Origin: Gamaleyavirus AN24P2
Length of the DNA stretch: 64,000 bases
Reading direction: 5' to 3' (one strand)
Sequence record: OZ035810.1
Under the pieces are notes generated by a model, which was not told the origin of the DNA, did not search any database, and saw only the letters and a program-made list of their open reading frames with translations. A program made the position numbers and the translations under genes. Shown one piece after another: positions 5,342 through 32,002 of this stretch. Within the stretch, counting starts at the first letter, position 1. Each line of letters opens with the position of its first letter.

Positions 5342-5366
5342 AAAACTACAACATGAGGAATAACCC

Positions 5367-7670: not shown

Positions 7671-7677
7671 GGTGATT

Positions 7678-7932: not shown

Positions 7933-7958
7933 TAAAAGCCCCTTACGGGGCTTTTCTT
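7933..7958 (+). terminator. rho-independent terminator
   Basis: AAAAGCCCC-TTAC-GGGGCTTTT hairpin followed by CTTCT. Confidence 0.6.
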
Positions 7959-8054
7959 CTACCCCACTCTACTATAAATAAGTATTATCTTTTGGTCAGA
8001 CTCTTCTGATACGTCCCAAATGGGTATCATTAAAGAAACATTAAGGACTTTCTC

Positions 8055-13631: not shown

Positions 13632-14834
13632 ATGTTAAACTATAACGCTCCAGTTAACGGTCAGAAATCTAGCATTGATGGTGCTGGTTCCGACCAGATG
13701 AATACCTTTTATTGGCTGAAGAAAGCTATTATTCAGTCCCGTAAAGACCAGTACTTCATGCCACTGGCTAACACTATTAACATGCCTAAGAACTACGGTA
13801 AGACTGTTAAGGTGTATGAGTACGTTCCACTGCTTGATGATAAGAACATTAACGACCAGGGTATCGATGCTAATGGTGCTACCATCGTTAATGGTAACCT
13901 GTATGGTTCTTCTAAAGACGTCGGTAACATCACTTCTAAACTGCCTCTGCTGACAGAGAATGGTGGTCGTGTTAACCGTGTAGGTTTTACTCGTCTGTCT
14001 CGTGAAGGTTCCATCCATAAGTTCGGTTTCTTCTACGAATTTACTCAAGAGTCTCTGGACTTTGATTCCGATGACCAACTGAAAGAACATCTGTCACGCG
14101 AACTGATGAATGGTGCTGTGCAGTTGACTGAAGCCGTTCTCCAGAAAGACCTGCTGGCTGCTGCTGGTACTGTACTGTATGCAGGTGCTGCTACCTCCGA
14201 TGCCACCATCACTGGTGAAACTTCTACCCCGTCTGTAGTTTCTTATAAGAACCTGATGCGTCTTGACCAGATTCTCACTGAGAACCGTACCCCGACTCAG
14301 ACTACTATCATCACTGGTTCTAAACTGACTGATACTAAAGTACTTGGTGGTACTCGTGTAATGTATGTTGGTTCTGAATTGGTTCCAGAATTGAAAGCGA
14401 TGAAAGACCTGTTCGGTAACAAAGCATTCATTGAAATTCAGCACTATGCTGATGCTGGTACTCTGATGAATGGTGAAGTTGGTTGTATCGATAAGTTCCG
14501 TATTATCCAGGTTCCAGAGATGCTGCATTGGGCAGGTGCAGGTGCTCAAGCTACTTCTAACCCGGGCTACCGTTCCTCTATGGTTAATGGTCAGGAACAC
14601 TACGACGTATTCCCGATGCTGGTAGTTGGTGATGATTCCTTCTCTACCATTGGCTTCCAGACTGACGGTAAGTCCGTTAAGTTCTCTATTATGACTAAGA
14701 TGCCTGGTCGAGAAACTGCTGACCGTAATGACCCGTATGGTGAAACTGGCTTCAGTTCCATCAAGTGGTACTACGGTATCCTGGTTAAACGCCCAGAACG
14801 TCTGGCTATGATTAAGACTGTTGCTCCTCTGTAA
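13632..14834 (+). CDS. major capsid protein
   Basis: 400-aa ORF (N4 major capsid protein is about 400 aa); AGGA RBS; strongly biased codon usage; followed by a hairpin. Confidence 0.75.
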
Positions 14835-14907: not shown

Positions 14908-15543
14908 ATGAGCATTAACGATAAACCGACCGCTGGCGTAGACGTGAACGTGCAGGGCAACGAAGATACCGTTAACGATATTGCAATGCCTAGTGAACTT
15001 GAGGTTCTTAAGCAACGTGCAACATTGATGAATATTAAGTTCTCTAACAACATCTCCGTTGAAAAACTCCGTGAGAAGATTGAAGCTGCACAAGCAAAAG
15101 ATGAACCAGTAGTAGAAGAAGCTGCTATTAACCCATTGGGTGAAAAACAAGAAGCAGGTGTTAAGAAGATGACTCTGGGTCAGAAGATCCGTGCAGAACA
15201 GACTCGACTGATTCGTGTACGTATTCAAAACCTTGACCCTAAGAAGAAAGACCTGCCTGGTGAGATTATCACCGTAGCTAACGAATATATGGGTACTGTA
15301 CGTAAGTTTGTACCGTTCGGTGAAGTCACTGACAACGGTTATCATATTCCGTACTGTATCTATGAGTTCCTTAAAGAGCGTAAGTTCATCAACATTACGA
15401 CTCGCAAAGGTAAGAATGGCTTACCGGATATCCGTGCAACAGAAGCACGAGAGTTCTCCATTGAAGTACTGCCACCGCTGACTGAAGCAGAACTGGCTCA
15501 ACTGGCTCAAGCACAGATTGCTGCTGGTAGCCTGAACGATTAA
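14908..15543 (+). CDS. virion structural protein
   Basis: 211-aa ORF with AGGAAA RBS in the structural gene block. Confidence 0.45.
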   Translation: MSINDKPTAGVDVNVQGNEDTVNDIAMPSELEVLKQRATLMNIKFSNNISVEKLREKIEAAQAKDEPVVEEAAINPLGEKQEAGVKKMTLGQKIRAEQTRLIRVRIQNLDPKKKDLPGEIITVANEYMGTVRKFVPFGEVTDNGYHIPYCIYEFLKERKFINITTRKGKNGLPDIRATEAREFSIEVLPPLTEAELAQLAQAQIAAGSLND

Positions 15544-15613: not shown

Positions 15614-16456
15614 ATGATTATGTCTTGTTCTGCTGAGGTAGAAGCTAACCGACTCCTAGTAGAGTTAACTAAGGGTGATGACTTTACTCTGCCCAATGTT
15701 GATATGTCCGGTCCTGCATGGGATATCCCAGGTGGAGATACTTCCCCAATCTTTGGTGCTATTGATAAAGTAACCAATGAGTCACTCACTACTCGTGAAG
15801 TAGGTGGTAGTGGTACGTTTGATGCATTAATGGAATCTGCACACAATCATCTCAAAGCCGAGTTTAAAGCTAACCGTATTACTGGTGGTGAATATACCAA
15901 AGCGTACATTGCTATGATGGAAGCCTGTATGAGTAATGCTGTTCAGTTCTTACTTGGGCGTGACCAAGCATACTGGGCTGCTGCTATGGCACAGATTCAG
16001 GCAGTTACTGCACGTGTTGGTTTAGCAACGGCTAAGGCTCAGTTTGTACTTGCTAAGGTACAGGCACTGTCTACTAAGTCTGAGTATGCCTTAACTAAGC
16101 TGAAGCTCTCTAATGAGGGTCAAAATTACTGTGCTGCAAAATTCAATGTGGATGAGATTCTTCCAGCTCAGGAACGTTTACTTAAAGAACAGTATGAAGT
16201 ACAGCGTGCACAGACCATGGAAACACGTTCAGACTCATTGCCTATTGCTGGTTCTATTGGTAAACAGAAAGAATTGTACTCTCAACAGATTACTTCTTAT
16301 CAACGGGATGCAGAAGTGAAGGCATCCAAGCTGTTTACTGATGCATGGATTACTCAGAAGACTATTGATGAAGGTTTGAATCCACCTAATGGTTTTACTA
16401 ACGCAAGTATTGATACCATCTTGGACAAGCTGAAATCTAACAACGGGCTGAACTAA
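15614..16456 (+). CDS. virion structural protein
   Basis: 280-aa ORF with ATG and RBS, in the structural block between capsid and vRNAP. Confidence 0.45.
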
Positions 16457-16457: not shown

Positions 16458-19112
16458 ATGGGCTTATTCAGTGGGAAGACTAAAGTATACGTAGCATCCT
16501 CTGTCTACAATATGGCAGGGGATATACATAAGCGTCCAAACTATATGAAGACTGTAGTTATCGGTAAGATTGTTGCTGATACTGGATTTACTATGGCAGA
16601 TACTATCTCTGATAGTTACCTGAACGGACCGGGTACTCGTATGCGATTGTTCTCTAGCTGGAGTAAGAATCACTATGACTCTATCGTTGGTATGGCTGGT
16701 TCCTCATTGGGTGTATTAGCCAAGATTGACCCTGCTGTTATAGAGGGTCAAATTACCCCTCCTGCCGGGGAATCTGTCTATGTTCAGGCAGCAAATATTG
16801 GCTTTGCTGATTTTGAGCAGTGGTGTGACCAGTATCTTTATGAGAATGCCCCAAGTCGAATCATGGAACGATTCGACATAGACATTAACGAGGACACTAA
16901 TGAAATTACTATGACCTCCTTAGATGGAGGCTCTACTATTACATTTACACCTACCAACTTTGAACCAGGTGCTCTGTATCTCTATGCTGATTACACATTC
17001 TATAAGTCACCTACTACCTACCCACCCGTAGAAGGTCCGACTACTGTCTATGATAATGAAGATGATTTACCGTCTACCTTGTTGTGGACTACTGTCTCCA
17101 GTGATACGACAGCTAATACAACTAACCTTACTAAGACTATACAGACTCATTCGGTTTATTCTGACGGTAGACCGGATGAGGACAGTACTGTTACTGAACC
17201 AAGTGTGGATAACTGGAACTCTTACGTTAAGGTTTATCGTAGGGGATTCACTGAGAAACCAGATGGTGTAACTGTAGTTGTATCTGACAGGGTAATGACT
17301 CATAAAAAGTTTGGTGAGATTCAATCCAGTACTTCTGTAACTACTAATGTAGTTGATATAGGTAATGGTGTTACTCGTACAGATACGATCACCACTACTA
17401 CTGAGACACTGGTTCGTAAGTATTCCTCCCAGACTACTCATACTGACACTGAAATGACTGCTGTTAGTACTCCCAAGATGCTCATCTATAAGCATAACTC
17501 TGGCAATACTGTACTAGACTCATTATTTGAGACTGAAGCTACTGATAACCGATTCTATCCATTTATTCCAATCAGGAATGATAAACAATGGGTAGAGAAT
17601 GACCCAATTTACCCACACTGTAAAAAGGCTCTTTATAAAGCCACTGGGGGTAAACTTAATAAAGTAACAGCAGAGCTTAAGAAAAATAATGATATAGGGG
17701 ATATACAGTACATCTACGGTACATTTGGTGTATCTCTTAATACTCCAGAGGATACTGCTAAGGAATACATCTATCGTTTTTTTCAGATGGCTACCGAAGC
17801 GTTTCCACCTGACCCAACATACCCAACTCTGGAATCAGTAATTGCAGGATACCAGGCAGCCAATGATGCAGTTGATGCATATGTAGAATGGTGGAACAGG
17901 CAGGAAGGTCATATTGTTGGAACACCTCCCCCCTTGCCAGAATACCCTGTCATACCTAAGCGAGAGTTTAGGGTACATAGTAATAAGCAGTACAAATACG
18001 ACATGACTATTAGCTGGAATTATGTATTTGAAACTACTCACTCAGGTAAAGCATGGTCTGGTGCTAAACAAGGGCAACTTCGAGCCAGGTATGCAGGGGA
18101 TATAACTCTTACACGCAAGAACATACGTACAGCTAGTAACTCTGGTTCAGCTAAAAGATTAGAAGTTACTCCTACGTTTTACTCTATGCAGGAATATGAG
18201 TTGCTTTGGCAAGATGGTAATAACACCTATCGTAAACTTAGGGTGCTGGGCTTACACCATAGCAACAGGGTTTATAAAAACAAGTCAGTGAATATTGATG
18301 TTGCTGAAGCTATGGGTGATGCAGAGGAGAGTGGATTCATAATCCCCCTACATACTAATATCTATCGTTCTATGTCACTGGTTCGTGGTACTCAGTTATC
18401 TACTGCTTGCTCCTACTTAGTGATGAACTCATACAAAAAGGTTAAGAAGAAGTGGTATCAAACTTCTGCCTTTAAGATTGTGGTGGTTGTGGTTGCTGTA
18501 GTTGCATCCGTATTTACTATGGGTGCAGGTGGTGCTGGTATTCTTGGAGCTTACGGTGCAGTCGGTGCATCACTCGGTTTTGTTGGATTGGCTGCCGTAA
18601 TAGTAGGTGCTGTAGCAAACACCATTGCTGCAATGATTCTGATATCCATCACTACTAAAGTAGCTACTTCACTGTTTGGCGATAAGCTAGGTTTTATCAT
18701 TGCTGCTATTGCCTCGATGGTAGCCATGAATGTTGGTACTGCTTTATCTACTGGTACGTCCTTATCTTCTCTAGCCGGTGAAATGATGAATGCCCAAAAC
18801 ATCATGCAGCTTACTAGTTCGGTTGGTAATGGTATTAGTCAGTATATTAATGCATCCACGGCTGCTACTATTCAGAAAGCTGAGAAAGTAATGCAGCAGT
18901 ACAATACTGATATGATGGCAATCAATAAGCAGTATGAAGAGATGTTTGGTACTGCTGGGCAGGGTGTAATTGACCCTATGCAATTCGTGTCAATGGAGTC
19001 GTTGGATTCATTCCTTTCACGTACTCTTATGACTGGTTCGGATATAGCTGACATGTCCTTAAGCATGATAGGTAACTACTCCGATATGACTCTCAATACT
19101 GACCTTGTTTAA
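16458..19112 (+). CDS. large virion protein with C-terminal Gly/Ala-rich membrane-spanning segments (candidate ejection/channel protein)
   Basis: 884 aa; C-terminal region contains consecutive hydrophobic glycine-zipper-like stretches (VVVVVAVVASVFTMGAGGAGILGAYGAVGASLGFVGLAAVIVGAVANTIAAMILI). Confidence 0.45.
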   Translation: MGLFSGKTKVYVASSVYNMAGDIHKRPNYMKTVVIGKIVADTGFTMADTISDSYLNGPGTRMRLFSSWSKNHYDSIVGMAGSSLGVLAKIDPAVIEGQITPPAGESVYVQAANIGFADFEQWCDQYLYENAPSRIMERFDIDINEDTNEITMTSLDGGSTITFTPTNFEPGALYLYADYTFYKSPTTYPPVEGPTTVYDNEDDLPSTLLWTTVSSDTTANTTNLTKTIQTHSVYSDGRPDEDSTVTEPSVDNWNSYVKVYRRGFTEKPDGVTVVVSDRVMTHKKFGEIQSSTSVTTNVVDIGNGVTRTDTITTTTETLVRKYSSQTTHTDTEMTAVSTPKMLIYKHNSGNTVLDSLFETEATDNRFYPFIPIRNDKQWVENDPIYPHCKKALYKATGGKLNKVTAELKKNNDIGDIQYIYGTFGVSLNTPEDTAKEYIYRFFQMATEAFPPDPTYPTLESVIAGYQAANDAVDAYVEWWNRQEGHIVGTPPPLPEYPVIPKREFRVHSNKQYKYDMTISWNYVFETTHSGKAWSGAKQGQLRARYAGDITLTRKNIRTASNSGSAKRLEVTPTFYSMQEYELLWQDGNNTYRKLRVLGLHHSNRVYKNKSVNIDVAEAMGDAEESGFIIPLHTNIYRSMSLVRGTQLSTACSYLVMNSYKKVKKKWYQTSAFKIVVVVVAVVASVFTMGAGGAGILGAYGAVGASLGFVGLAAVIVGAVANTIAAMILISITTKVATSLFGDKLGFIIAAIASMVAMNVGTALSTGTSLSSLAGEMMNAQNIMQLTSSVGNGISQYINASTAATIQKAEKVMQQYNTDMMAINKQYEEMFGTAGQGVIDPMQFVSMESLDSFLSRTLMTGSDIADMSLSMIGNYSDMTLNTDLV

Positions 19113-19125: not shown

Positions 19126-19569
19126 ATGGATTTGTCATTCTTTACGGGCAACCCAACTCCACAGCCAGCGGCTATGTCTTGGATGCCCAATAATAATCAG
19201 AACTTTAATACCCCTGCTATGAATTACATCCCAGGTGCATCCATTGGTATGGGTACAAATGCAGGAGTATCTTCTCCTACTTCTTTCTTGTCTGGTTCAG
19301 CTAATCAGTTGGGAATGAACGTACCTACCTTCCAGTTAGGGCTTGGTGCACTTGGTTCATTGGCTAATATCTATAGTGGTTTCCAGGCCAATAAGTTAGC
19401 CAAAGACCAGTTGAACTTTGCTAAGAGTGTTACTAACACTAACCTGAATAACCAGATTAAGTCTTATAACACTGCTCTGGAAGATCGTGCTCGTAGCCGT
19501 GCTACAGCAGAGAACCGTGACCAGTCTACTGCTGATGCTTATATTGCAGCTAATAAATTAACTCGTTAA
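19126..19569 (+). CDS. virion structural protein
   Basis: ORF-track start 19105 is TTG; ATG at 19126 has an AGGAGA RBS. Confidence 0.4.
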   Translation: MDLSFFTGNPTPQPAAMSWMPNNNQNFNTPAMNYIPGASIGMGTNAGVSSPTSFLSGSANQLGMNVPTFQLGLGALGSLANIYSGFQANKLAKDQLNFAKSVTNTNLNNQIKSYNTALEDRARSRATAENRDQSTADAYIAANKLTR

Positions 19570-19581
19570 TAGGAAACCATC

Positions 19582-21546
19582 ATGGCTCAAATTACATGGC
19601 GTAATGTTGATGCACCTAACTTCTCTGGAGTTGGTGACAGCATTCGCACATTTGGAAGCATGATTGGTAACGCCACCTCCGGCTTAAGTGATGCACTGGG
19701 TAATTTCCAGAACGCTGCCAAGCAGGAGGCTGGCAATGCCGTCATGATGAATGCTATGCAGTATCAAGACCCAACTGAGTATCGTAATGCTTTGGCGTCT
19801 GGTGCACTGTTTCAGGGTGTTGACCCTTCTCTGATAAGCCAACGTACTCTCCAGAATCTGGATGAACGAGCAGGTACATTATTGAGTCAGCAAGGTCAAC
19901 AAGGAACCAATGACTACAATAACTATCGTTTTGGTCGATTACAGAAAAATGATTCTGCGTTAGATAATGCTTCTCCCGCTATTCGTTTATTGTCTGAAGC
20001 TTACCAGTCTGGTGACCAGAATCGTATTAATACTGCATTGGGTCAGACTCGTGAGGCATTATCTACGCTCCCAGCTGACCAACAGTTAGAATTGTTAGGT
20101 AGTTTACAAGGACAGGGTAGTGCTGCTATTAATCAGGCGAGCAATCGTTTTGATTTGGGTGTTGCTCAACGTAATGATGCCGATAGTCAGGCAGCTATGG
20201 GTGTAATGGCACAGATTACCCGTGGTGCTGAGAACCCTAATGATGCCCGTCTGTTGGCAGAAGCATACAGTAAGAACCTGTCTCCAGTTGCACAGGCACG
20301 CTTGCAGGGATTACTGGCTAATGCTTACCCGGGTGTTTACGGTAATGGTGTAGGTGCTACGTCTGCTCCTGGTACTGCTGGTACTCGTCAGGGTTCACCT
20401 TACGATGTTACTTATCAGTTTGCTGGTACATCTACTCCTATTACTCAAATGAGTATTGGTGATGTAATTAAACACCAGGATGGTATGAAATCGAACCAGG
20501 GTGCTTCCCCTGTTGGTGCATTCCAGATTAACCAAGCTACTCTGAAAGACTTCGCTCCCAAAGTTCTTGGTTCAGATTGGCAAAGCCAGCCTCTTTCTGC
20601 TGAGAACCAGGATAAGATTGGTAAGGCTATCTTCGAGTCTCGTAAGAATGGCAACCTTAAAGATACCTGGGCTGCTCTTCCTAACTCTACCCCAGGTGCT
20701 TATAAGGACATGACTTGGGAAGAGATTAAACCTGTTATTGCCCAAGCTGAAGTAGGGGCTGACCCACTCGCTATGGTTCAGAATAATCAAGGCAATCAGG
20801 CAGTATCTACCTTGGCTCAGGGTATGATTGGTACACGTTCTATGCAGGATAATACCGGTAGTCTTAATACTGACTTCCTTGGTACTGTCACTGATAATAC
20901 CCCAGTAGGTGAGATTGCTAACCGTCTGTTGGAAGGTGATTTTAAAGGTGCTGACCGTAACTGGGTACTGAACCGACTGAACGATATTTCTCAACGTGGA
21001 AATATGTCACCAGCTATGGCTGCTGCTGTTATGCAACGTGCACAGACTGGTGTACCAGAAGGTTATATTAGTCGTGCTATTGATGCAGTTAACCCATTCA
21101 TTACCAACGAAGCCGGTAATGGTATGCGTCTTAATGACCGTCAGGTAGAACAGTTAATTGAGGGTGTGAAACGGGGAGAACCACTGGAAGGTAGTGTTCG
21201 TAACCTAGGTCGTGCTCAGGCTATGCAGAATATTCAGGCAGCACAGACTGCATATGATGCTGCTGTAGCTGCACTGACAAATACCCAGAATAAGATTAAC
21301 ACCGGGCAAAGTGGTCTTACTGCACTGTTACCTGCACGTCAGGAAGCTGTTAATAAAGCTGCTGCAATGCTACAAGCTGCACAGGCACAAGTACAGGCTG
21401 ACCCAGCTAACCTGGCTCCAAAAGGTTTTCGGTCACAGGCTAGTGTGGACAGGGCACGAGCAAAGGAAGATGAAGAACGTGCTGCACGTTACCTACGTCA
21501 GGCACAAGGATTGCCTGAGTATATGCAACCAAGACAAAATCGGTAA
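19582..21546 (+). CDS. virion structural protein (N4 gp51-like by position)
   Basis: 654-aa ORF immediately upstream of the vRNAP gene; AGGAAA RBS. Confidence 0.45.
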   Translation: MAQITWRNVDAPNFSGVGDSIRTFGSMIGNATSGLSDALGNFQNAAKQEAGNAVMMNAMQYQDPTEYRNALASGALFQGVDPSLISQRTLQNLDERAGTLLSQQGQQGTNDYNNYRFGRLQKNDSALDNASPAIRLLSEAYQSGDQNRINTALGQTREALSTLPADQQLELLGSLQGQGSAAINQASNRFDLGVAQRNDADSQAAMGVMAQITRGAENPNDARLLAEAYSKNLSPVAQARLQGLLANAYPGVYGNGVGATSAPGTAGTRQGSPYDVTYQFAGTSTPITQMSIGDVIKHQDGMKSNQGASPVGAFQINQATLKDFAPKVLGSDWQSQPLSAENQDKIGKAIFESRKNGNLKDTWAALPNSTPGAYKDMTWEEIKPVIAQAEVGADPLAMVQNNQGNQAVSTLAQGMIGTRSMQDNTGSLNTDFLGTVTDNTPVGEIANRLLEGDFKGADRNWVLNRLNDISQRGNMSPAMAAAVMQRAQTGVPEGYISRAIDAVNPFITNEAGNGMRLNDRQVEQLIEGVKRGEPLEGSVRNLGRAQAMQNIQAAQTAYDAAVAALTNTQNKINTGQSGLTALLPARQEAVNKAAAMLQAAQAQVQADPANLAPKGFRSQASVDRARAKEDEERAARYLRQAQGLPEYMQPRQNR

Positions 21547-21577: not shown

Positions 21578-21640
21578 TACACTGGCTTACTGTAGAGTAA
21601 GCTTCTTATATACGATATAAGTTTGAACAGGAAACATGCT

Positions 21641-24600
21641 ATGTCAACATTTGACCGTCTGGCAGGTTTCGCAGACAGCATCACTAATGCTAAGCAAGTC
21701 GATGTCTCTACTGCTACCTCTCAGAAGCAAGCTGCACAAGGGCAAAGCCCTTTCCAATTAACCCCAGAGAATGCTTACAATCTCCAAACTGGACGAGTAG
21801 GTAATTTAGGAATCGGTGCGTTCGAACCAGGTTCCCTCCAAGCTGATTTCACTCAGGCTTCCCCATTAGAAATTCTTAATAAATATGGTAATGAGCAAGG
21901 TCTACAGATTCTTAATAGCCGAGCTAATGCTGCTGATGCTGTACGTCAGGACTTATCTAAACAACGTACTAACGCAGAAGCATTTGGTGATACTCTTTCT
22001 GGTGTTGGTCTTGGTGTTGCTAATACCCTGGGGGGCATTGCTGCTCTTGGCACAGGTTTGGTCAATGATAATGCCGGGGCATCCATTGCTTCCGGGATGG
22101 ATTGGTTGAATGAAGGTGTGCACAATCTCCAGTCTGATGCACTGAATGTTACCCGTAAGGTTGTTCAGAATCAGAACCAGATTTCTGCTCAAAAGAACCA
22201 GAAACTTTACGAACAAGACATCAAAAATGGGGAGAGCAGCTTGGTTGCCTCCCTGTCTCGCATTGGTCGTGATGCTTTTGATTCTGTTGCTAATACACTT
22301 GATAACGGTATGGCTGCTACTGATGGGCTAAGTGAAGGTGTTGGTTCCCTCTTTACTGGTGGTCCACTTATCCGTGGTGTATCTGCACTCGGCAAAGTAA
22401 TGGTAGGTGGTGATAAAGCCGTTAAGGGTATTACCTTAGCTGCTGAGTTAGGTTCTCGTCCTGCACAGGTTGCATTGTCTGCTGGTCGTGTTGCTGCACC
22501 TGCTATTGCAATTGGTGGTATGGAAGCTGGTGGTGCATACCAACAGACTGCTTCTGAAATCATGAAGATGTCACATCAAGAATTAGCAAGTAAGTCTCCT
22601 GTTTATCAACAACATATTGCTGATGGTTTATCTCCTGATGAAGCTCGTCGTCAGACTGCATCTGAAACAGGTATCATTGCTGCTGGCTTAACTGCTCCGG
22701 TTGCTGCTGCTACTGGTCCACTGGTATCTAAATTTGAACTTAATCCACTTAAGGTAGGTTCACTGGTTGGTGCTGGTTCTAACATGCTGCGTGAAACTGT
22801 AGAAGAAGGTATCCAGTCTGGTACTAGTCAGTTTGCACAGAACAAAGCAATTCAAGGTAATGTAGATGCTAAACGTGACTTGCTTAAAGGTGTTGGTGAA
22901 CAAGCAGGTCTTGGTGCACTTTACGGCTTCGGTAGTGCTGGGGTTGCTCAAGCTCCAGGTGCAACTGTTAAAGCTGTTGGTGCTACTGCTGGTCCAGCCC
23001 TTCGTACTACTTTAGCCGGTGCTTCCCTGGTTGGTAGTGCACTAGCAAAAGCTGCATCTCCTCTTACTAACATCCTGGTTCAACGTGGTGAAGAAGTTGC
23101 TAAACGAAATGAACAAGCATCCCCTGTAGCTGATGCTACGGTTAATGCTGCTGCACAGGAAGCTGCTGCTCAGGCAGAACAAGCACAAGCAACTGTACAG
23201 GAAGCAGTAGATGCAATGGATATTTCTCCGGAAGAGAAAGCTGCTGCTACCCAGTATGCTGCTGACTTAACTCAGGCAATGAAGTTTGACCCGGTAGAAT
23301 TGGAACAAACTAACCCAGCAATCCGTGAAGCTGTTTCTGGTTCCACTAACCGTGTTGAAGCTATTCAGAAGATGGCTGACCTGGTTAATACTGCTGAGGA
23401 TCCTAACGTTCAAATGGAAGCTGCAATCCAGATGTATGACAATATCATGTCTATGGATAGCTTCATTAACCGTGACCCGGGTGCTCTGGCTAATCTGGAA
23501 CAAGGTTCTCCTGCTGCTGCGATTGTAGACCAGTTCTCCGGTCTGATGGCTAACGTACAGAATACTCCGAAGGTACTCCGTGCATTTCGTGCCATCCATT
23601 CCATGATTCAGGAACAGGCTGAAGCGGGTAAATTGAAAGCTACTGAAGAAGCTAACCAAGCTCAGGCAAACAACATTGCTATGGCTGCTGATGTGTCTCC
23701 AGAAGTTCTGGATGTAGAATCAGTGAACATGGTTCTGAAGCACGCAAGTGAAGGTAAGATTACATTAGGGAATCGTCAGCGTGCTGCCCTGCAATCTGCT
23801 GCTGCTCTATTGCAAGGAGCACGAGAATTTGACGCTAAAGCAGAAGAACTGGGCTTACGTCCTCAAGACATTGTTAGTAAACAAATTAAAACCGACGAAT
23901 CTCGTTCTAATGAAGGCCAGTACTCTGCGTTGCAACATGCTAAACGCATTCGTTCTGCGTACAACTCTGGTAACTTCGATTTGGCTTCCGCTTATCTCGA
24001 CGACTTTATGAAGTTCGCCCAGCACATGCAGAATAAGGTCGGAGCGTTGAATGAGCATTTGATTTCTGGGAATGCGGATAAGAATAAGTCTGTCCATTAT
24101 CAGGCTCTTACTCCCTCCCGTGAATGGGTACGTAGTCGTACTGGCCTCGGTGTCAATCCGTATGATACCAAGTCTGTTAAGTTTGCCCAGCAAGTAGGAC
24201 TGGAGGCCAAAACCGTAGCTGATATTGTTAATGCACTTGCTACGGCTTACCCGGAGCTTAATGTTTCTCATGTTAAAGTTACTCCATTAGATTCACGTCT
24301 GGACAAGCCTGCTGCCCAGGTGGTTAAAGAGTTCCGTCAGGGCAATCTTGATGCTGCTCAATCCCAACAGACCAATGAACCAGTGAATCAGGTTGATGAA
24401 ACTCCTGTTACAAAACAGGAACCAGTTACCCCTACTGTACAGACTAAACCCTCTGTTAGTGAAGCTGTTAAAACAGAACCTACTATTAAAGAGTCTAAAC
24501 CACAGTCTGTAAAAGAACCTGAGAACCAGTCCGAAAAGCAGGATGCTGCCATCACTAATGAGGATACCACTCAGGAAGTAGCTGAAACTAAAACGGAAAT

Positions 24601-27600
24601 GGAAGCAGTGTTCCCTGTCTATAACAATGACAAGACACCGAGCCAGTTCCTTAAAGCATTTGCTCTGCCGGAAGAACCTAAGACTCGTACCATTGGTTCT
24701 GAATCTCCTTTGACTGATGTTAAGCAAGCACTGTCTTCTGCTGCTCGCTTTGAAGCATTCACACAAAAAGAAAATAACGCTCTCACAAGTGATGTGATGA
24801 AACGTTATCAGGACTTACTGGGCTTTGGTGAAACTCTGAAGACTACTCTTTCTGACCGTCTGGCTAAGTTCCTTGCTAACAAAAATGTTGGTAAACGTTT
24901 TGCAGAAGGTACTGAAGCTAACCGTTGGGTAGGTGGTAAACTGCTGAATATCGTTGAACAAGACGGTGACACCTTTAAGTTCAATGACCAGTTGTTAGAG
25001 ACTGCTGTACTTGCTGGTCTGCAATGGCGACTAACTGCTACACAGAATGCTGCTGTTAAAGACATGAAAGACATAGCTGCTATTACTGGTGTAGAAGCAT
25101 CCCTGTTACCTGAAGGTATTCTGGCTGAATTTGAGAATGCTCAGACTCTGGTTGAAGCTACTAGCTCACTGGCTCAAAAGATTGAATCCTACTGGGGTTT
25201 GAATCGTAATCCTAATGCACCACTGGGCTATACCAAGGGTATCCCAATGGCAATGGCTACAGAGATTCTGTCTTCCCTTATTGAGATGGGTGAAGTTAAA
25301 GAGTCTATGCTGGATGTGTCTGAAATTGACCCAGCCTCCGATAAGACTGTAGGTCTGTACACCATTGAGAAGCTGGATGATAACGATGCCATTAACAATT
25401 TCCCTACTGCTATTGAGGAAGCTGTCCTCGTAGAACCAGAAGAGAAAATGTACTTTGGTGATGATATTCCTTCCGTGGCTCAAACTCAGTTACGTAATCC
25501 GGCTGTTAAGAATACCCCTGAACAGAAAGCTGCTCTTAAAGCAGAACAGGCTACTGAGTTCCGTGTACACATGCCTATGGTTAACTTCTATGAAGCATTA
25601 GGTCGTGACAACATTCTGGAACTGATGGGTGCTGGTACGCTTAATCCTGAACTACTGAACGTAAACACTGCTAAATCACTGGAAGGTAAGAACCTGTCAG
25701 TGTCTATGGCATATGATTCCTTGTTTGGGGTAATCAATCAGGTTCAGGAACAGGAGAATGGACTGGATACTCCTATTCACTATGGTTATAACATGACCCG
25801 TGTAGGTCGTATGCAGATGCTTGGTAAGAATAACCCACAATCCAGTAAGCTGGTGCGTGAAGCAATTCTGCCAACCTTCTCTACTATTGACTTGAGTAAT
25901 GAAAACAGCCAAACGTTCTCAGACTTCCAGTTAGGTCTGGCTCAGGCATTAGGCATCAAGGTACATAACATGTCCCGTGAAGCTATGTCTGAAAAGCTGA
26001 CTAAAGCTCTGGAAGGTAACCTGAAACCTGCTGTTGATATGATGGTTGAGTTTGATAAGTCTGGTCACTTACCAGTTGATGCAGTGGATATTCTGAAGAC
26101 GTCTCTTGGTGGCGATAAATCCTTCGTAGCTCTTATGGCTCTTATGGAATATGCCCGTTACCTGAACAGTGATGACCGTGCCAACTTTAATACCCCACTG
26201 TACGTTGAAGCCGATGGTGTAACTAACGGACCAATCAACGCAATGGTATTAATGACGGGTGGTAAGTTCACTTCAGACTGGGTTAAGAATACTGCTAAAG
26301 GTGGTCTGTTCTTTGGTAAAGCTGGTAAGACTATGAATGAACACCGTTCACAGGATGACAGTGTTGACTTGTATGAAGCATCTACCAACAGTCTGCAACA
26401 AGCTCTGAATGAGTTACGTACTACTTACCGTAACAACGTTCCGGTTATGAACCAGATGAATCATCTCCAAAAGTTAATGGACCTGTTCATTAAAGACTTT
26501 AACCTGAACGAAGACGGTACTCTGGACCTGAAGCGTGGTATCGCTAAAAACCCACTGACTATTACCATCTATGGTTCCGGTGCTCGTGGTATTGCAGGCA
26601 AGATGGTTAGTGCAATTACTGATACCATCTATGAACGCTTCAGTGACGTTCTGCAAGCTCGCGCTGCTGACCCTAGCATTTCCCCAGCTATGGCAATGTT
26701 TGGTAAAGAGGCTGCGTCTGAGACTGATGCTCAGGCTATGCTGGATACTTTCCTTACATCTATGGAAGCACTGACTGGTAATGTTCCAGTTATGCGTAAA
26801 GGTGAGCTGTCTATTCAACAAGTAGAAGGTGCTCTGACTGGTAAGTTAGACCCCCAGAAGTTTACTGTATCTGGTAATGCTCTGAAGAACCTGCAAGAGA
26901 ACATGCTTCACTTGTTCGTTGAACCAATGCGTACTGGTATTCGAAATACTGTTGGTGAAGGTCTAATGCACTCTACTGAGAACTTGCAGAAGGCTACCCA
27001 GATTCAGTCTCTGGTATTGCAAGACATGTTCCAGCAAGCAGTACAGACTAAGCTGGCAGAAAAAGAAAAAGACCCAACATGGAAGAAGGGTGATTTCTTA
27101 ACTCAGAAAGAACTGAACGAAATCCAGGAATCATTGTCTCCACTGGCTCCAATGATTGAGACTGGTTCGCAGACTTTCTACATTGCTGGTAGTGAGAATA
27201 CTGACGTTGCTAACCAAGTACTGGCTACCAACTTAGATGACCGTATGCGTGTGCCAATGAGCATCTATGCTCCTTCACAGGCAGGTGTTGCAGGTATTCC
27301 ATTTATGACCATTGGTACTGGCGATGGCATGATGATGCAGACCCTTTCTACTATGAAAGGTGCTCCGAAGAATACCCTGAAAATCTTTGATGGTATGAAC
27401 ATTGGTATCAATGACATCACTGATGCAAGTCGTAAAGCTAACGAGGCTGTATATACTTCCTGGCAGGGGAATCCTATCAAGAATGTTTATGACTCCTTTG
27501 CTAAGTTCATGAAGAACGTAGACTTCAGCAAACTGTCCGATGAAACTAAACAGGCTATCGCTAAGTCTGCTTTGGAATATGACCAGCGTGAGGGTGCTAC

Positions 27601-30600
27601 TGATGCCTTATTACGTGCAGGTGCTGAACAGATTGAGCGTAACTTGCGTAACATTGCTCTTGGTGTAGATATTCGCCATAAAGTAATGAACCAGGTACAG
27701 ACTACTGTTGACCAGATGGCTGCTGTAGGTGCTCCTTATGTGAACAACGGTAAAATCTCTCTGGAAGGTCTGACTGTAGACCAGCAAGTAGCTAAGCTGA
27801 ACGAATTGTTTGATGCTGAATTAAACAAACGTCGTGATGCAGTACGTGCTGCTAAAGCAGAACCAGTGAAAGAAGTACCAGCAATTGAGCAGGTTGGTCG
27901 TGTACTGAAGTCTGGTGTACGTCTGCTGTCTAATACTGCTATCTCTAAGCTGGCTAAAGAGATGTCTCAGGAACAACAAGCAGTACTGAAAGAAGTACAG
28001 AAATCCCCTGCTGCTAAAGACTACAAGGTTGTCTATGGTACACCTGCCCAACTGGATGCTTACGCTATTGAGAAGAACATTACTCGCCCAGCACCGGAAG
28101 ATATTGAAGCTGCTGAAGCAGGTAATGCATACGGCTGGACTAACTTCGAAGATAAGACCATTTATCTAGTTACCCCTTCCTTAGAAACTCTGGTTCATGA
28201 ATTGGTACATGCTTCTACTTTTGAATCTGTACTGACTCACTATGAAGGTACTCCTAATGAAGCAGTTCAGAACATTGAAGACCTGATGAACCAGTTCCGT
28301 GCTCTGGATGTTAAGGATGAATCTCCGGCAGTACGTGAAGCGTATGCTGATGCACTTAATACCATTAATGGTCACTTGTCCAATGGATTCATTGAGCCAT
28401 CAATGGCTAAAGCTGCTGCACTTAACGAGTACATGGCTTGGGGCTTAACCAACCGTGAACTGATTAGTAAGCAGAAGAAAACCACTGCACTTAAGACTAT
28501 GGTTCAGGCTGTGTATGAAGCAATCAAGCGTCTGGTATTTGGGCGTAAGAAAGCACCAGCTAATGCAGATGATATGTTCTCCGGCTTACTGTTTAACTCT
28601 GCTGTAGTAATGCGAGGACAAGCTCCTACTGCTGCTGTAGCTAAAGATACTACCCTGTTCCATAACAAAGCATACGGTGATAATACTCGTCTGGAAGAAT
28701 TAGGAAAAACCTTCGATAAGTTAATTACTGACTACATTGGTTCAGAACCAGTACAACAAGTAATTCGTAAAGGTAAGTTCTCTGATGCAGTAGTGAATGC
28801 AACTAAAGTAACCCGTGATGTTCAGGCTCATGGCTTCGCTATGAATATGCAGGAACAGCGTCTCTTTACTAACATTGTTGCTGCTCTGGCTACTGAGGCT
28901 GCTATTAACCCTGCTGCTTTGGCTCGTGCACAGGAATACTACACGCATGTTACTAAGAACCTGACTGTTGAAGCATTTATGGCTGACCCAGATAGTACTA
29001 ACCCTGCTGACCGTTATTACGCTCAACAGAAGTTCGATACCATCATGGGTGCTAACAATATTGAGTTTGATGCACAGGGACGTTCTTCCTTACTGCCTAC
29101 CTTTGTTGGGCTGGCAATGGTAAGTGAAGAAGTACGTAAGGTACTGGCTGATATTCCTGTTATGAAAGCAGATAAGCAATCCGGTAATACAGTTGATGCA
29201 ATGCTGACTAACATTGGTACTGCTGCAATGGCTAGTCTGAATGCTCGTGTAGCAGGTGATACCAAAGCTACTAATGTACAGGAAGGTATGGATGCACTGG
29301 CTCAAACAATCATGCAGACTAGCCTTAATGCACAGTCCTTTTATGATTCTGTTGCTACTCCTAGTGGTAATGCTATTGACCGTGCTAACCAGTATCTGGT
29401 GGACTCTATTGATGTATTGTCTACCCGTGCTTTAGAAGGTGCTCGTGAAGTTGCAGCTAATACCAAGAACCCGTTGGTTAAAGGTGCTGCTCATGCTGCA
29501 CAACTGATTGCTGCTATTGCTACAGAGAAGAATGGTGAAATCGTAGCCGAAGGAGTTATGGCTGCAATGAACCAGGGTAAGGTATGGCAACCTTTCCATG
29601 ACCTGGTTAATGACTTAACTGGTCGTACTAAGAGCAATGCTTCTGTGTATGATTTGATTAAGGCAGTTCGTGCACAGGTACAGGCTGACCGTCAACAATT
29701 CCGTGAACATTTGCCTACTACTATCGCATCTAAGTTCAGCCGTAAGCTGACTAATGATGAGTGGAAAGCAATGCACACTGGCATGGGTAAAACTGACTTG
29801 GCTGTCCTGCGTGACACTATGTCTTTGGCTGAAATCCGTGATTTGCTGTCGGACCAAAAGATTGTTGACCGTGAAGTGAATAAGCTGGAAGCAGATTTGC
29901 AGAAGCAAGCTGGACGTAACTGGCCTCTGATTAGTCGTAAATCTAAGCAACTGGCTCAGTTTATGATTAATGGTACAGTTGGTAATAACTTGCTGCGTAA
30001 TGCTACTGCAATTTCTCGTTTACTGGGTGAACGTAAGACTACTAGTTCTATTGTAGATGTAGCTAAACTGGATAAACTGATTACCCTGTATGCACTGGAA
30101 GCAATGAGTAATACTGACCGTGAGATGCTATCTTCACTGGCTCAAACAGAAGTTGATGGGATTGATTTTGCTACTTCTTACCTGGTTGGTCAGCGTAAAG
30201 ATGAAATGGCTAAAGCTAAGTCTGACATGCGTGCAACCCTGAACCAGTACAAAGGTTACATTCCTGGTGAGACTAAACAAGGTGTTAACCTGATTGTTGC
30301 TGAAGACAGTCAATTTGCTGATTTGATTGAGAAGTCCTATGTGCGACTGGGTACTTATCAGGGTAGCTCTGCTAATCGTGGTCCAGCACGTAGTTACTAC
30401 TTTGCACCAGTACAGGCACAGGCTCCATTCTCACAGGGTATCTTACAGAACGTTCGTAATACTGCTGGTGGTGTAGACCTTGGTACAGGCTTTACGATGG
30501 GTACAATGGTAGCTGGTCGTATCACTGACAAGCCTTCCGTAGACCGTATCACTAAAGCACTGGCTCGTGGTGAACGTGGTAATGAACCACTGCTGCCTGT

Positions 30601-31999
30601 GTATGATGACAAAGGTAATGTAGTTGCCTATGAGCAATCTATTGACCCTAACATGCTGAAGCACATTGAGGGTGAGAACCATCTTGCTCGTGCAATTGGT
30701 GTATGGCGTGGTCGTCAGGTAGAGGAAGCTAAGGCCCAGCGTTTCAACGATATGCTGATTGAAAATCTGCATAGCATGTACGAGAACGACATTAAAATGT
30801 CTGCCTCTAATAAGTCCCAGTATGTGAACCTTCTTGGTTCTAAACTGGACCCAGTAACTGCTGATGCTCTTAAACTGATGAACACTGAAACACGTCAGAA
30901 AGCAGAAAGCCTGTTTGGACCCGGTGAACTGTGGGTTCGTCGTGATATGCTGAATGATGCACTAGGCTATCGTGCAGCTTCTGTAGGTGATGCCTGGTCT
31001 GGCAATTCTCGTTGGTCCCCAGAAACACTGGATACCTTCAAGAAAGCTATGTTAGGTGTATTTGGCAACCGTGCTTACAAGTACGTAATGGGTGGTGAGA
31101 ACCTGGTTCAGAACTTAGTTAAAGAAGCTAAGACTCTGATTGTAGTTAAGTCAGTAGTTGTACCTGCTGTTAACTTCTTAGCTAACCTTTACCAGATGGT
31201 TGGTCGTGGTGTACCTGTTAAGAACATTGCTAAGAGCATTCCACAGAAGACTGCTGAGATTAACCAGTACCTGAAATCTCGTCTGCGTCAGGTAGATGCA
31301 GAAGCAGAATTACGAGCAGCTACTAATCCGAACCAGATTCGTAAACTTAAAGCTGAGATTCAGTCCATTACTGATAGTCATAAGCGTATGAGTATCTGGC
31401 CTCTATTAGAAGCTGGGGAGTTCTCTTCAATTGCAGATGCTGGTATTGGACGTGATGATATCCTGATTACTGAGGGTAAACTCCATGAATACATGGATAA
31501 GCTGGCTGATAAGTTACCTAAGTCAGTACGTACTGCTGGTCGTTATGCACTTATCACTAAGGATACTGCTTTGTTCCAGGGTATCCAGAAAACGGTTGAG
31601 TACTCTGACTTTATCGCTAAAGCAATCATCTATGATGACTTAACTCAGCGTAAAGGTAAGACACGTGAAGAAGCACTTGGACGTGTAACTGAAGAGTTCA
31701 TTAACTATGACCGTCTGCCGGGACGTTTCCGTGGCTATATGGAAAGTGTTGGTCTTATGTGGTTCTACAACTTTAAGATTCGTTCTGCAAAAGTTGCAGT
31801 GTCCATGATTCGTAATAACCCGGTCCATGCAGCAATGGCGATGTTGGCTCCAACTCCTACCATGTTTGGTAACGTTGGCTTACCTATTCAGGACAACATC
31901 TTTAGCATTGCTGCTAAGGATAGTCTGGATTACTCTTGGGGCTTTGGACAAGGGCTTCGTGCTCACAACCTGAACCCTTGGATGAACCTGGTAAACTAA
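21641..31999 (+). CDS. virion-encapsidated RNA polymerase (vRNAP, N4 gp50-like)
   Basis: Single uninterrupted ORF of about 3,452 aa from the ATG at 21641 (ORF-track start 21623 is TTG); size and position match N4 vRNAP; AGGAAA RBS. Confidence 0.8.
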   Translation: MSTFDRLAGFADSITNAKQVDVSTATSQKQAAQGQSPFQLTPENAYNLQTGRVGNLGIGAFEPGSLQADFTQASPLEILNKYGNEQGLQILNSRANAADAVRQDLSKQRTNAEAFGDTLSGVGLGVANTLGGIAALGTGLVNDNAGASIASGMDWLNEGVHNLQSDALNVTRKVVQNQNQISAQKNQKLYEQDIKNGESSLVASLSRIGRDAFDSVANTLDNGMAATDGLSEGVGSLFTGGPLIRGVSALGKVMVGGDKAVKGITLAAELGSRPAQVALSAGRVAAPAIAIGGMEAGGAYQQTASEIMKMSHQELASKSPVYQQHIADGLSPDEARRQTASETGIIAAGLTAPVAAATGPLVSKFELNPLKVGSLVGAGSNMLRETVEEGIQSGTSQFAQNKAIQGNVDAKRDLLKGVGEQAGLGALYGFGSAGVAQAPGATVKAVGATAGPALRTTLAGASLVGSALAKAASPLTNILVQRGEEVAKRNEQASPVADATVNAAAQEAAAQAEQAQATVQEAVDAMDISPEEKAAATQYAADLTQAMKFDPVELEQTNPAIREAVSGSTNRVEAIQKMADLVNTAEDPNVQMEAAIQMYDNIMSMDSFINRDPGALANLEQGSPAAAIVDQFSGLMANVQNTPKVLRAFRAIHSMIQEQAEAGKLKATEEANQAQANNIAMAADVSPEVLDVESVNMVLKHASEGKITLGNRQRAALQSAAALLQGAREFDAKAEELGLRPQDIVSKQIKTDESRSNEGQYSALQHAKRIRSAYNSGNFDLASAYLDDFMKFAQHMQNKVGALNEHLISGNADKNKSVHYQALTPSREWVRSRTGLGVNPYDTKSVKFAQQVGLEAKTVADIVNALATAYPELNVSHVKVTPLDSRLDKPAAQVVKEFRQGNLDAAQSQQTNEPVNQVDETPVTKQEPVTPTVQTKPSVSEAVKTEPTIKESKPQSVKEPENQSEKQDAAITNEDTTQEVAETKTEMEAVFPVYNNDKTPSQFLKAFALPEEPKTRTIGSESPLTDVKQALSSAARFEAFTQKENNALTSDVMKRYQDLLGFGETLKTTLSDRLAKFLANKNVGKRFAEGTEANRWVGGKLLNIVEQDGDTFKFNDQLLETAVLAGLQWRLTATQNAAVKDMKDIAAITGVEASLLPEGILAEFENAQTLVEATSSLAQKIESYWGLNRNPNAPLGYTKGIPMAMATEILSSLIEMGEVKESMLDVSEIDPASDKTVGLYTIEKLDDNDAINNFPTAIEEAVLVEPEEKMYFGDDIPSVAQTQLRNPAVKNTPEQKAALKAEQATEFRVHMPMVNFYEALGRDNILELMGAGTLNPELLNVNTAKSLEGKNLSVSMAYDSLFGVINQVQEQENGLDTPIHYGYNMTRVGRMQMLGKNNPQSSKLVREAILPTFSTIDLSNENSQTFSDFQLGLAQALGIKVHNMSREAMSEKLTKALEGNLKPAVDMMVEFDKSGHLPVDAVDILKTSLGGDKSFVALMALMEYARYLNSDDRANFNTPLYVEADGVTNGPINAMVLMTGGKFTSDWVKNTAKGGLFFGKAGKTMNEHRSQDDSVDLYEASTNSLQQALNELRTTYRNNVPVMNQMNHLQKLMDLFIKDFNLNEDGTLDLKRGIAKNPLTITIYGSGARGIAGKMVSAITDTIYERFSDVLQARAADPSISPAMAMFGKEAASETDAQAMLDTFLTSMEALTGNVPVMRKGELSIQQVEGALTGKLDPQKFTVSGNALKNLQENMLHLFVEPMRTGIRNTVGEGLMHSTENLQKATQIQSLVLQDMFQQAVQTKLAEKEKDPTWKKGDFLTQKELNEIQESLSPLAPMIETGSQTFYIAGSENTDVANQVLATNLDDRMRVPMSIYAPSQAGVAGIPFMTIGTGDGMMMQTLSTMKGAPKNTLKIFDGMNIGINDITDASRKANEAVYTSWQGNPIKNVYDSFAKFMKNVDFSKLSDETKQAIAKSALEYDQREGATDALLRAGAEQIERNLRNIALGVDIRHKVMNQVQTTVDQMAAVGAPYVNNGKISLEGLTVDQQVAKLNELFDAELNKRRDAVRAAKAEPVKEVPAIEQVGRVLKSGVRLLSNTAISKLAKEMSQEQQAVLKEVQKSPAAKDYKVVYGTPAQLDAYAIEKNITRPAPEDIEAAEAGNAYGWTNFEDKTIYLVTPSLETLVHELVHASTFESVLTHYEGTPNEAVQNIEDLMNQFRALDVKDESPAVREAYADALNTINGHLSNGFIEPSMAKAAALNEYMAWGLTNRELISKQKKTTALKTMVQAVYEAIKRLVFGRKKAPANADDMFSGLLFNSAVVMRGQAPTAAVAKDTTLFHNKAYGDNTRLEELGKTFDKLITDYIGSEPVQQVIRKGKFSDAVVNATKVTRDVQAHGFAMNMQEQRLFTNIVAALATEAAINPAALARAQEYYTHVTKNLTVEAFMADPDSTNPADRYYAQQKFDTIMGANNIEFDAQGRSSLLPTFVGLAMVSEEVRKVLADIPVMKADKQSGNTVDAMLTNIGTAAMASLNARVAGDTKATNVQEGMDALAQTIMQTSLNAQSFYDSVATPSGNAIDRANQYLVDSIDVLSTRALEGAREVAANTKNPLVKGAAHAAQLIAAIATEKNGEIVAEGVMAAMNQGKVWQPFHDLVNDLTGRTKSNASVYDLIKAVRAQVQADRQQFREHLPTTIASKFSRKLTNDEWKAMHTGMGKTDLAVLRDTMSLAEIRDLLSDQKIVDREVNKLEADLQKQAGRNWPLISRKSKQLAQFMINGTVGNNLLRNATAISRLLGERKTTSSIVDVAKLDKLITLYALEAMSNTDREMLSSLAQTEVDGIDFATSYLVGQRKDEMAKAKSDMRATLNQYKGYIPGETKQGVNLIVAEDSQFADLIEKSYVRLGTYQGSSANRGPARSYYFAPVQAQAPFSQGILQNVRNTAGGVDLGTGFTMGTMVAGRITDKPSVDRITKALARGERGNEPLLPVYDDKGNVVAYEQSIDPNMLKHIEGENHLARAIGVWRGRQVEEAKAQRFNDMLIENLHSMYENDIKMSASNKSQYVNLLGSKLDPVTADALKLMNTETRQKAESLFGPGELWVRRDMLNDALGYRAASVGDAWSGNSRWSPETLDTFKKAMLGVFGNRAYKYVMGGENLVQNLVKEAKTLIVVKSVVVPAVNFLANLYQMVGRGVPVKNIAKSIPQKTAEINQYLKSRLRQVDAEAELRAATNPNQIRKLKAEIQSITDSHKRMSIWPLLEAGEFSSIADAGIGRDDILITEGKLHEYMDKLADKLPKSVRTAGRYALITKDTALFQGIQKTVEYSDFIAKAIIYDDLTQRKGKTREEALGRVTEEFINYDRLPGRFRGYMESVGLMWFYNFKIRSAKVAVSMIRNNPVHAAMAMLAPTPTMFGNVGLPIQDNIFSIAAKDSLDYSWGFGQGLRAHNLNPWMNLVN

Positions 32000-32002
32000 A
32001 AT

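Follow-up and report, generated by a model that had tools for sequence, protein, structure and literature searches.

The open reading frame at 16458..19112 (+) of the window, which is the whole 64-kb stretch (64,000 nucleotides) analysed from the N4-like schitovirus Gamaleyavirus AN24P2, very probably codes for the schitovirus tail plug and is the ortholog of N4 gp53 and DEV gp74. This identity is assigned because of a full-length match to N4 gp53, gene synteny, the mapping of the N4 plug "knot" onto the protein and family conservation. The frame opens with an ATG found 2 nt past the stop codon of the tail tube gene and codes for 884 amino acids, exactly as given in the initial annotation. N4 gp53 (PDB 9yft_FA) is matched end to end over aa 1-883 (phmmer, E = 0, 1045 bits), with 54% identity, similar length (884 versus 885 aa) and an alignment that runs from residue 1. 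The DEV plug (9ze4_M) was also matched in the PDB sequence search (2.4e-14, best over aa 610-867) and the unnamed family PHROG 2220 matches the protein with 1088 bits, while in Pfam the plug was without a match, as were four of the five neighbouring proteins. The plug fold, a globular/triangular core to which a beta-feather may be added, is present in the AN24P2 protein, and both sequence and fold searches of the PDB retrieved plug proteins only. Note that the Foldseek PDB set predates the release of 9YFT and the fold was compared with the DEV chain instead. For AN24P2 itself, the present analysis establishes orthology, synteny and fold and maps the knot residue by residue.

The gene is embedded in a module whose order (MCP, gp55, gp54 tube, plug, gp52, gp51, vRNAP) was matched throughout to N4, the neighbours being assigned through sequence searches of the PDB and through tblastn queries with the N4 proteins. 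The same gene order is found in Vibrio JA-1 and Shigella B2. The upstream gene (15614..16456, +) codes for the tail tube protein (N4 gp54 ortholog, 63% identity; PDB 9d80_C "Tail protein", 3.9e-137; N4 Gp54 in 9lc0/9yf4/9yft, 3.4e-121), the component of the dodecameric tube that is sealed by the plug. The plug gene is followed by those of the small ejection protein (N4 gp52 ortholog, 19126..19569, +; PDB 9yf4_OA "16.5 kDa protein", 1.7e-44), which also matches the DEV "N4 gp52-like protein" 8vxq, of the ejection protein (N4 gp51 ortholog, 19582..21546, +; PDB 11mn_A "66 kDa protein", 5.3e-128; 50% identity) and of the virion RNA polymerase (N4 gp50 ortholog, 21623..31999, +; tblastn, 66% identity). 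N4 gp52 aligns to 19126-19566 and the program-made frame opens at TTG 19105; the true start of the gp52 ortholog is likely the ATG at 19126. Residues 1-3500 of N4 gp50 align to positions 21641-31996, starting from the ATG at 21641 (tblastn).

The cryo-EM structure of N4 (PDB 9YFT; Bellis et al., Nat Commun 2026, PMC13434306) defines gp53 as a plug that is present in one copy and lies mostly outside, at the tip of the tail tube made of gp54, in a tube/plug arrangement with a 12:6:1 symmetry mismatch. Its residues 29-56 and 670-716 build a protein-protein "knot" that corks the tube and does not span a membrane, while the last ~160 residues are unmodelled and located inside the tail lumen (PMC13434306). 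DEV gp74 is likewise the tail plug (PDB 9ZE4 chain M, PMC12892993). By analogy with these N4 and DEV cryo-EM structures, the position, copy number and knot structure of the plug would be the same in AN24P2. The proposal of the initial annotation that the protein is a virion structural component of the delivery apparatus agrees with the detection of its orthologs in viral particles, namely N4 gp53 by LC-MS (PMC13434306), Moo19 gp70, which has 69% identity to the AN24P2 plug, by MS (PMC11654681) and LIT1 gp74 by mass spectrometry (PMC3715699). The Moo19 map features a weak density at the tube tip that was not attributed to a protein (PMC11654681).

Several segments can be delimited along the AN24P2 protein. 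The amino-terminal half of the hydrophobic knot (aa 29-56; 16542..16625, +) maps one to one and without gaps onto N4 29-56, with 64% identity, and is predicted to form short helices at aa 29-40 and 46-55. The four-stranded beta "feather", a long protrusion (aa 211-334; 17088..17459, +), has strands modelled by AF2 at aa 211-234, 241-269, 272-302 and 305-334 with pLDDT ~85-93; it is missing from 4 of the 55 homologs and shorter in one more. A conserved basic/aromatic lead-in, NSYKKVKKKWYQTSAFK (aa 657-673; 18426..18476, +), is positioned directly before the apolar run. Two of its residues, N657 and W666, do not vary among the homologs, conservation reaches 90% or more at Y659, K663 and Y667, and the motif is also found in Vibrio JA-1 gp47 and Shigella B2 gp33. 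The uncharged Gly/Ala/Val run that makes the carboxyl-terminal half of the knot (aa 674-720; 18477..18617, +) corresponds exactly and gaplessly to N4 670-716 (66% identity). Two further hydrophobic segments (aa 721-765; 18618..18752, +), with a family mean Kyte-Doolittle hydropathy (KD) of 1.49 and 73% identity to N4, lie mostly past the modelled part of N4 gp53, which stops at residue 724 (AN24P2 728). The polar carboxyl-terminal tail (aa 766-884 and stop codon; 18753..19112, +), for which AF2 predicts helices with low confidence, carries the invariant residues E847, F852, R855, T856 and G860 and is expected, by analogy, to be found in the tail lumen. With AF2, the greater part of aa 688-884 has pLDDT values under 50 (block means of 27-57), and this also applies to most of the stretch 688-728; the knot fold was not reproduced by the AF2 model, and its assignment as a knot and not a TM bundle comes from N4 and not from this model.

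The hydrophobic block of the AN24P2 plug is far from a chance occurrence. KD values of at least 1.6 in 19-residue windows are confined to aa 667-765 (75-87% of the protein length), with a maximum of 2.44, and aa 674-720 form 47 consecutive residues devoid of D, E, K, R, H, Q, N or P, a run length not attained in any of 5000 shuffled versions of the protein (mean 15.4, maximum 37). Ala, Val and Gly account for 19.5%, 14.2% and 13.3% of aa 668-780, compared to 5.8%, 7.0% and 6.4% in the remainder of the protein, which is polar. The initial annotation was thus right in describing a hydrophobic Gly/Ala-rich carboxyl-terminal quarter in an otherwise soluble protein. Its view of this region as a glycine zipper of GxxxG type holds only in part: there are ~23 small-xxx-small motifs, five matches to the relaxed zipper pattern (G/A/S)xxxGxxx(G/A/S) and two strict GxxxG (at G703 and G741) in the block, but the motif search found no GxxxGxxxG, the strict glycine zipper, anywhere in the plug and most glycines are spaced at i+3 (six GxxG). 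The abundance of Gly and Ala would let the short helices of the knot turn and pack tightly.

Each of the 55 homologs in the alignment, whose identities range over 27-93%, has kept the block, with a length of 85-97 aa and a mean KD of 1.3-1.84, and the remote homologs Vibrio JA-1 gp47 and Shigella B2 gp33 carry it as well. Segment 674-720 has 0% charged residues and a family mean KD of 1.97. Residues G707 and N721 are invariant, while conservation is 90% or higher at G694, G697, G703, A713, G717, G741 and G745. Family conservation is highest in the knot segments and their flanks (0.64-0.66 versus 0.40-0.54 elsewhere) and aa 721-765 are conserved to the same degree as the knot. Judged from these alignments, the invariant Gly and Asn residues and the high conservation of the knot would be more consistent with a packed structure of defined shape than with a membrane anchor of a generic kind.

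The hydrophobic stretch is real and its presence is already explained: it is the counterpart of the N4 tube-corking knot and not a DNA channel. The initial annotation had attributed it to an internal protein that is ejected to form a trans-envelope channel for DNA and vRNAP, a role in favour of which the TM-like character of the block, the position of the gene next to the ejection cassette and the luminal location of the N4 carboxyl-terminal part can be cited. Such a role is extremely unlikely. The N4 ortholog is present as one external copy that is kept after DNA release, the plug being still on and re-seated in particles emptied of DNA in vitro, which, as the authors caution, may differ from those of a real infection (PMC13434306). 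The N4 trans-envelope channel is composed of gp52 and gp51, both active in lipid bilayers, to which the roles of outer-membrane complex and periplasmic tunnel are assigned (PMC13434306), and their AN24P2 orthologs are the separate products of the next two ORFs. The abstract and the body of PMC13434306 give the labels of outer-membrane complex and periplasmic tunnel to gp51 and gp52 in opposite ways; the body text was followed here. In addition, neither the sequence nor the fold of the AN24P2 plug matched an ejection protein, and one copy with three to four helices would be too small to line a channel of ~35 Å, the width given for the tail and the ejection proteins.

For the tail plug of AN24P2 we infer a mechanism in which aa 29-56 and 674-720 would fold jointly, their short helices making a compact knot that is pressed cork-like into the tube mouth. 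The knot would hold back the pressurised DNA, the luminal copies of gp52 and the other ejection proteins, while the remaining ~155 residues (the two hydrophobic segments and the polar helical tail) would run up the tail lumen. Engagement of the receptor would shift the plug sideways and draw out its carboxyl terminus as a "ripcord", whose removal would permit the exit of gp52, gp51 and then of the vRNAP and DNA.

The proteins that hold the plug are probably not those of N4. In N4 the plug is clamped by domains D9-D10 of the receptor-binding sheath protein gp65, and gp64 together with gp65 is the plug tether. Eighteen of the 20 N4 genes from gp50 to gp69 were matched in the window, the exceptions being gp64 and gp65, for which tblastn gave no match at E<=1e-3 within the 64-kb window; this search covered the window only, and the genome of 71,225 bp extends 7.2 kb beyond it. 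There is also no ORF of gp65-like size in the window and the gp64/gp65 slot is taken in AN24P2 by two tailspike genes. Since no homolog of gp65 or gp64 is found in the window, other proteins would retain and free the plug and the gating arrangement would differ. G7C-like phages appear to have kept the plug in the absence of the N4 sheath, and receptor binding would be coupled to unplugging in another way.

A helical, TM-like character of the block is supported by the published Phobius prediction of 4 TM helices in KP8 ORF71, a 60%-identical homolog, by the description in the literature of predicted transmembrane domains in N4 gp53 and by three AN24P2 windows (aa 674-692, 711-729 and 744-762) that are near 0 kcal/mol in rough Hessa-scale sums (all three between about -0.6 and +1.9, with -0.6 for 711-729 and +1.9 for 744-762); in the N4 particle, the counterpart is a knot and not a membrane span. 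The Hessa-scale sums include no position terms and are rough figures. On this rough measure, the most favourable windows found in the gp52 and gp51 orthologs reach +7.0 and +10.7 kcal/mol and, among the plug, gp52 and gp51 ORFs, strongly TM-like sequences are found only in the plug. These features, together with the knot-level conservation of aa 721-765 outside most of the N4 model, could reflect a second, membrane-active role of the plug, whose freed aa ~674-765 would enter the outer membrane, where they would serve to anchor the tail or to start insertion of the gp52 pore. A precedent would be phi29 gp9, whose luminal hydrophobic loops are said to enter the membrane at a later stage. This role is compatible with the function as a plug, to which it adds one step, but we consider it unlikely, given that the N4 plug is found re-seated on emptied particles, that the model of the N4 authors requires lateral plug displacement only (PMC13434306) and that the Hessa sums are rough. 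It is also quite doubtful that the plug would be the first membrane-active component in infection, with release in Gamaleyavirus, where the gp65 sheath is missing, triggered by a tailspike and not by a sheath protein, in a third type of gating complex.

An action of the block mainly in the producing cell, by inner-membrane insertion in an assembly intermediate or in lysis/exclusion and with packing in the tail being secondary, is very improbable. The KKVKKK lead-in followed by the 47-residue apolar run does resemble a membrane-insertion signal and several database records name homologs "membrane protein", but the hydrophobic residues have a structural role that is resolved in the N4 virion (PMC13434306), the gene is found in the tail/ejection module with the lysis cassette elsewhere (8055-9744), and N4 gp53 Q98R, which came from a rapid-lysis screen, failed to reproduce the phenotype. 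A role of the plug in lysis was set aside on the basis of the Q98R result. For the AN24P2 plug and 50+ near-identical entries of GenBank, which carry the names "hypothetical protein" or "membrane protein", "tail plug protein (N4 gp53 family)" could serve as the new name, and their hydrophobic region could be annotated as a tube-corking knot and not as transmembrane helices.

The closest known system is N4 gp53, with which the AN24P2 plug shares the gene position, full-length homology, the one-to-one knot residues and the order of domains (amino terminus, core, beta-feather, basic lead-in, apolar run, hydrophobic pair and polar tail). They differ in that the external core and feather share just 38-44% identity and in the partner of the plug, gp65/gp64 in N4, which has no homolog in the AN24P2 window. 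DEV gp74 is more distant: it is 740 aa long, has no beta-feather, shows ~12-13% identity in structural alignments and is held by the gp56-gp55-gp54 receptor-binding fibre; particles of a DEV delta-56 mutant leak DNA. The gp52/gp51/gp50 ejectosome of N4 and its DEV counterparts are related to the plug by their setting, their orthologs being encoded directly downstream and leaving through the same tail, and N4 gp52 and the plug carboxyl terminus are both found in the tail lumen. The ejection proteins are, however, multi-copy, leave the particle, form bilayer channels and have no homology to the plug, to which the initial annotation had wrongly attributed their function. In phi29, the hydrophobic loops of the tail-knob protein gp9 are reportedly stored in the lumen of the podovirus tail, which they block (Xu et al., Nature 2016); they are part of the hexameric tube protein and are reported to leave it, in the proposed model, to make a pore in the membrane, whereas the AN24P2 plug is a separate protein, expected in a single copy, and is not homologous to gp9. 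The transmembrane glycine zipper GxxxGxxxG, reportedly described by Kim et al. (PNAS 2005), shares with the plug block a Gly/Ala-rich apolar helical sequence and many small-xxx-small spacings, but the corresponding N4 segment is composed of short helices packed in a protein tube instead of spanning a bilayer.

The gene at 16458-19112 (+ strand, ATG start) codes for an 884-residue protein, exactly where the initial annotation had placed it. Its DNA is 100% identical, at equal coordinates, to Gamaleyavirus AN24P2 OZ035740.1 (71,225 bp) and ~89% identical to G7C-like coliphages, which belong, like AN24P2, to the N4-like podoviruses in the family Schitoviridae. A Pfam search with the protein gave no match and a PHROGs search led to family 2220, which carries no name. 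Full-length homologs were found by tblastn in 203 phage records from genera known as N4-like, with identities of 54% to N4 gp53 and 69% to Moo19 gp70. Two PDB chains were matched by sequence: N4 "Gp53" (9yft_FA; E = 0, 1045 bits, residues 1-883) and the "N4 gp53-like protein" of Pseudomonas phage DEV (9ze4_M; 2.4e-14), whose best-scoring stretch, aa 610-867 of the AN24P2 protein, takes in the hydrophobic block as well as the C-terminal tail.

The gene order supports the same identity. Matches to 18 of the 20 N4 genes of gp50-gp69 are found in the window by tblastn with their order kept, and the flanking gene identities are also backed by sequence matches to solved structures. The counterparts of gp59 (portal, 9747-12017), gp57 (12395-13615), gp56 (major capsid protein, 13632-14834), gp55 (14908-15543) and gp54 (tail tube, 15614-16456) precede the gp53 counterpart (16458-19112), which is followed by those of the ejection proteins gp52 (19126-19569) and gp51 (19582-21546) and of the virion RNA polymerase gp50 (21641-31999). 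An identical gene order surrounds a homologous protein of equal hydrophobicity in two remote phages, Vibrio JA-1 and Shigella B2. Note that two called ORF starts are probably too early: N4 gp52 aligns from ATG 19126 rather than TTG 19105, which would overlap the stop of the plug gene, and N4 gp50 from ATG 21641 rather than TTG 21623. The gp57 ortholog (406 aa, 56% identical to N4 gp57) falls in PHROG 2120, labelled "tail length tape measure protein", which is implausible because the phage is short-tailed.

The role of gp53 was defined in the asymmetric structure of the N4 tail (Bellis et al., Nat Commun 2026, PMC13434306). One gp53 copy closes the 12-mer gp54 tube, in an assembly with a 12:6:1 symmetry mismatch, and a single copy of gp65, the receptor-binding sheath protein, clamps it through domains D9-D10. 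In the authors' proposed model, the plug is pushed sideways on receptor binding and its C-terminus then serves as a "ripcord" for luminal gp52 copies. The paper assigns the trans-envelope conduit to gp52, as outer-membrane complex, and to gp51, as periplasmic tunnel, each of which forms channels in planar bilayers. This assignment follows the body of the paper (Results, Discussion and Fig. 8 legend); its abstract states the reverse, and the correspondence of DEV gp72/gp73 is inconsistent from section to section.

The only hydrophobic zone of the AN24P2 protein spans aa 667-765, which holds all Kyte-Doolittle 19-residue windows reaching 1.6 or more (maximum 2.44). Ala, Val and Gly account for 47% of the residues in aa 668-780 versus 19% in the remaining protein. 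Within this zone aa 674-720 (IVVVVVAVVASVFTMGAGGAGILGAYGAVGASLGFVGLAAVIVGAVA) are 47 residues devoid of any charged residue, H, Q, N or P; when the protein was shuffled 5000 times, the longest such run had a mean of 15.4 and a maximum of 37. The glycine zipper ascribed to this region is a loose description: strict GxxxG motifs occur twice (G703, G741) and small-xxx-small motifs ~23 times, but GxxxGxxxG is absent from the protein, and glycine spacing is mostly 3, as six GxxG motifs are present.

Global alignment to N4 gp53 places the two segments that form the knot corking the tube mouth, N4 29-56 and 670-716, at aa 29-56 and 674-720, the latter being exactly the uncharged run; the last modelled N4 residue, 724, corresponds to 728. 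Identity to N4 is 89% at the N-terminus (aa 1-28), 64% and 66% in the two knot segments, 77% in the lead-in (aa 601-673) and 73% in the second hydrophobic pair (aa 721-765), and 41% and 44% in the external core (aa 57-200 and 471-600) and 38% in the beta-feather (aa 201-340). In an alignment of 55 homologs (27-93% identity) conservation is highest in the block and its flanks. The block is kept in all 55 (85-97 aa, mean hydropathy 1.3-1.84), as is the uncharged character of aa 674-720; G707 and N721 are invariant, and conservation reaches 90% or more at G694, G697, G703, A713, G717, G741 and G745. Four shorter homologs have no feather, and a further one has a shortened feather. The motif MGLFSxKxK in the amino terminus (aa 1-28, 16458-16541) is common to AN24P2, N4, DEV gp74, B2 gp33 and JA-1 gp47 (L002 1772-3880); in JA-1 the annotated start is apparently 8 codons too early (MDNHPFFIMGLFSK). 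The 775-residue B2 gp33 (L003 1733-4060) has the same hydrophobic block and synteny, despite the "N/A" entered for a gp53-like protein of B2 in the Moo19/B2 structure paper.

Judged by sequence, the hydrophobic region is transmembrane-like. Phobius predicts four transmembrane helices in KP8 ORF71, 60% identical to the AN24P2 protein (PMC6950046), and a study of N4 lysis mentions predicted transmembrane domains in gp53. Rough sums on the Hessa biological scale (19-residue windows, no position terms) are near zero in three windows, with +0.4 for aa 674-692, -0.6 for aa 711-729 and +1.9 for aa 744-762, and at least +8 in all remaining windows. The proposal of transmembrane helices rather than buried beta-structure thus passes on paper, and the region counts as helical. 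In the sole solved homolog the first ~47 hydrophobic residues sit buried inside a protein tube and the remaining ones are absent from the model. Conservation of small residues at specific positions would be more in keeping with a well-defined, closely packed protein fold than with an unspecific anchor facing lipid. The AlphaFold2 model from the 55-homolog alignment (mean pLDDT 75.5) is of high confidence over aa ~10-687, the four very long strands of the feather (211-334) among them, and has 10-residue block means of only 27-57 over aa 688-884; the prediction therefore bears out the plug fold, the conformation of the hydrophobic region lying outside its confident part. By the same rough sums, the gp52 and gp51 orthologs (19126-21546) have best windows of +7.0 and +10.7 kcal/mol, none strongly hydrophobic, even though the N4 proteins form channels in bilayers; the gp51 C-terminus is polar here, versus the hydrophobic one predicted in the N4 paper.

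The initial annotation saw a virion protein of the delivery machinery, which is borne out: gp53 of N4 (LC-MS, PMC13434306), Moo19 gp70 and LIT1 gp74 were detected in virions by mass spectrometry, and the N4 ortholog closes the tail tube. By analogy with N4, the C-terminal part of the AN24P2 protein would be luminal. The N4 ortholog contradicts an internal capsid protein that is ejected and forms a channel, since it plugs the gp54 tube, is still carried in vitro by particles that have lost their DNA, and is present in a single copy, the conduit being assigned to gp52 and gp51. The proposed function belongs to the two ORFs directly downstream. The hydrophobic feature is real, was noticed before by several annotators, and its mechanism is now explained for the family prototype. 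It is conceivable, albeit unlikely, that after withdrawal of the plug next to the cell surface the exposed knot and the conserved aa 721-765 have a part to play in the outer membrane; such a role would be of moderate interest, extending a known system rather than defining a new one.

The plug clamp is where AN24P2 probably departs from the described systems. In N4 the gp64/gp65 sheath combines receptor binding and plug clamping, whereas window positions 3006-8054, compared with N4 28758-35904 (L001), carry two tailspike-like genes (3006-5282 and 5367-7670) in the gp64-gp66 slot. N4 gp66 matches only over its aa 1-100, and tblastn finds no match to gp64 or gp65 in the window, which takes in all of the genome but its final 7.2 kb. 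The clamp must presumably be something else, because gp64 and gp65 have no match there and their slot is held by tailspike-like genes; the external core, whose identity to N4 is low, would agree with this. DEV gp74, the homologous plug, has no feather, and a different receptor-binding fibre keeps it in place. Plug clamping and receptor coupling in AN24P2 would differ from both N4 and DEV, and are most plausibly provided by a tailspike or an adaptor.
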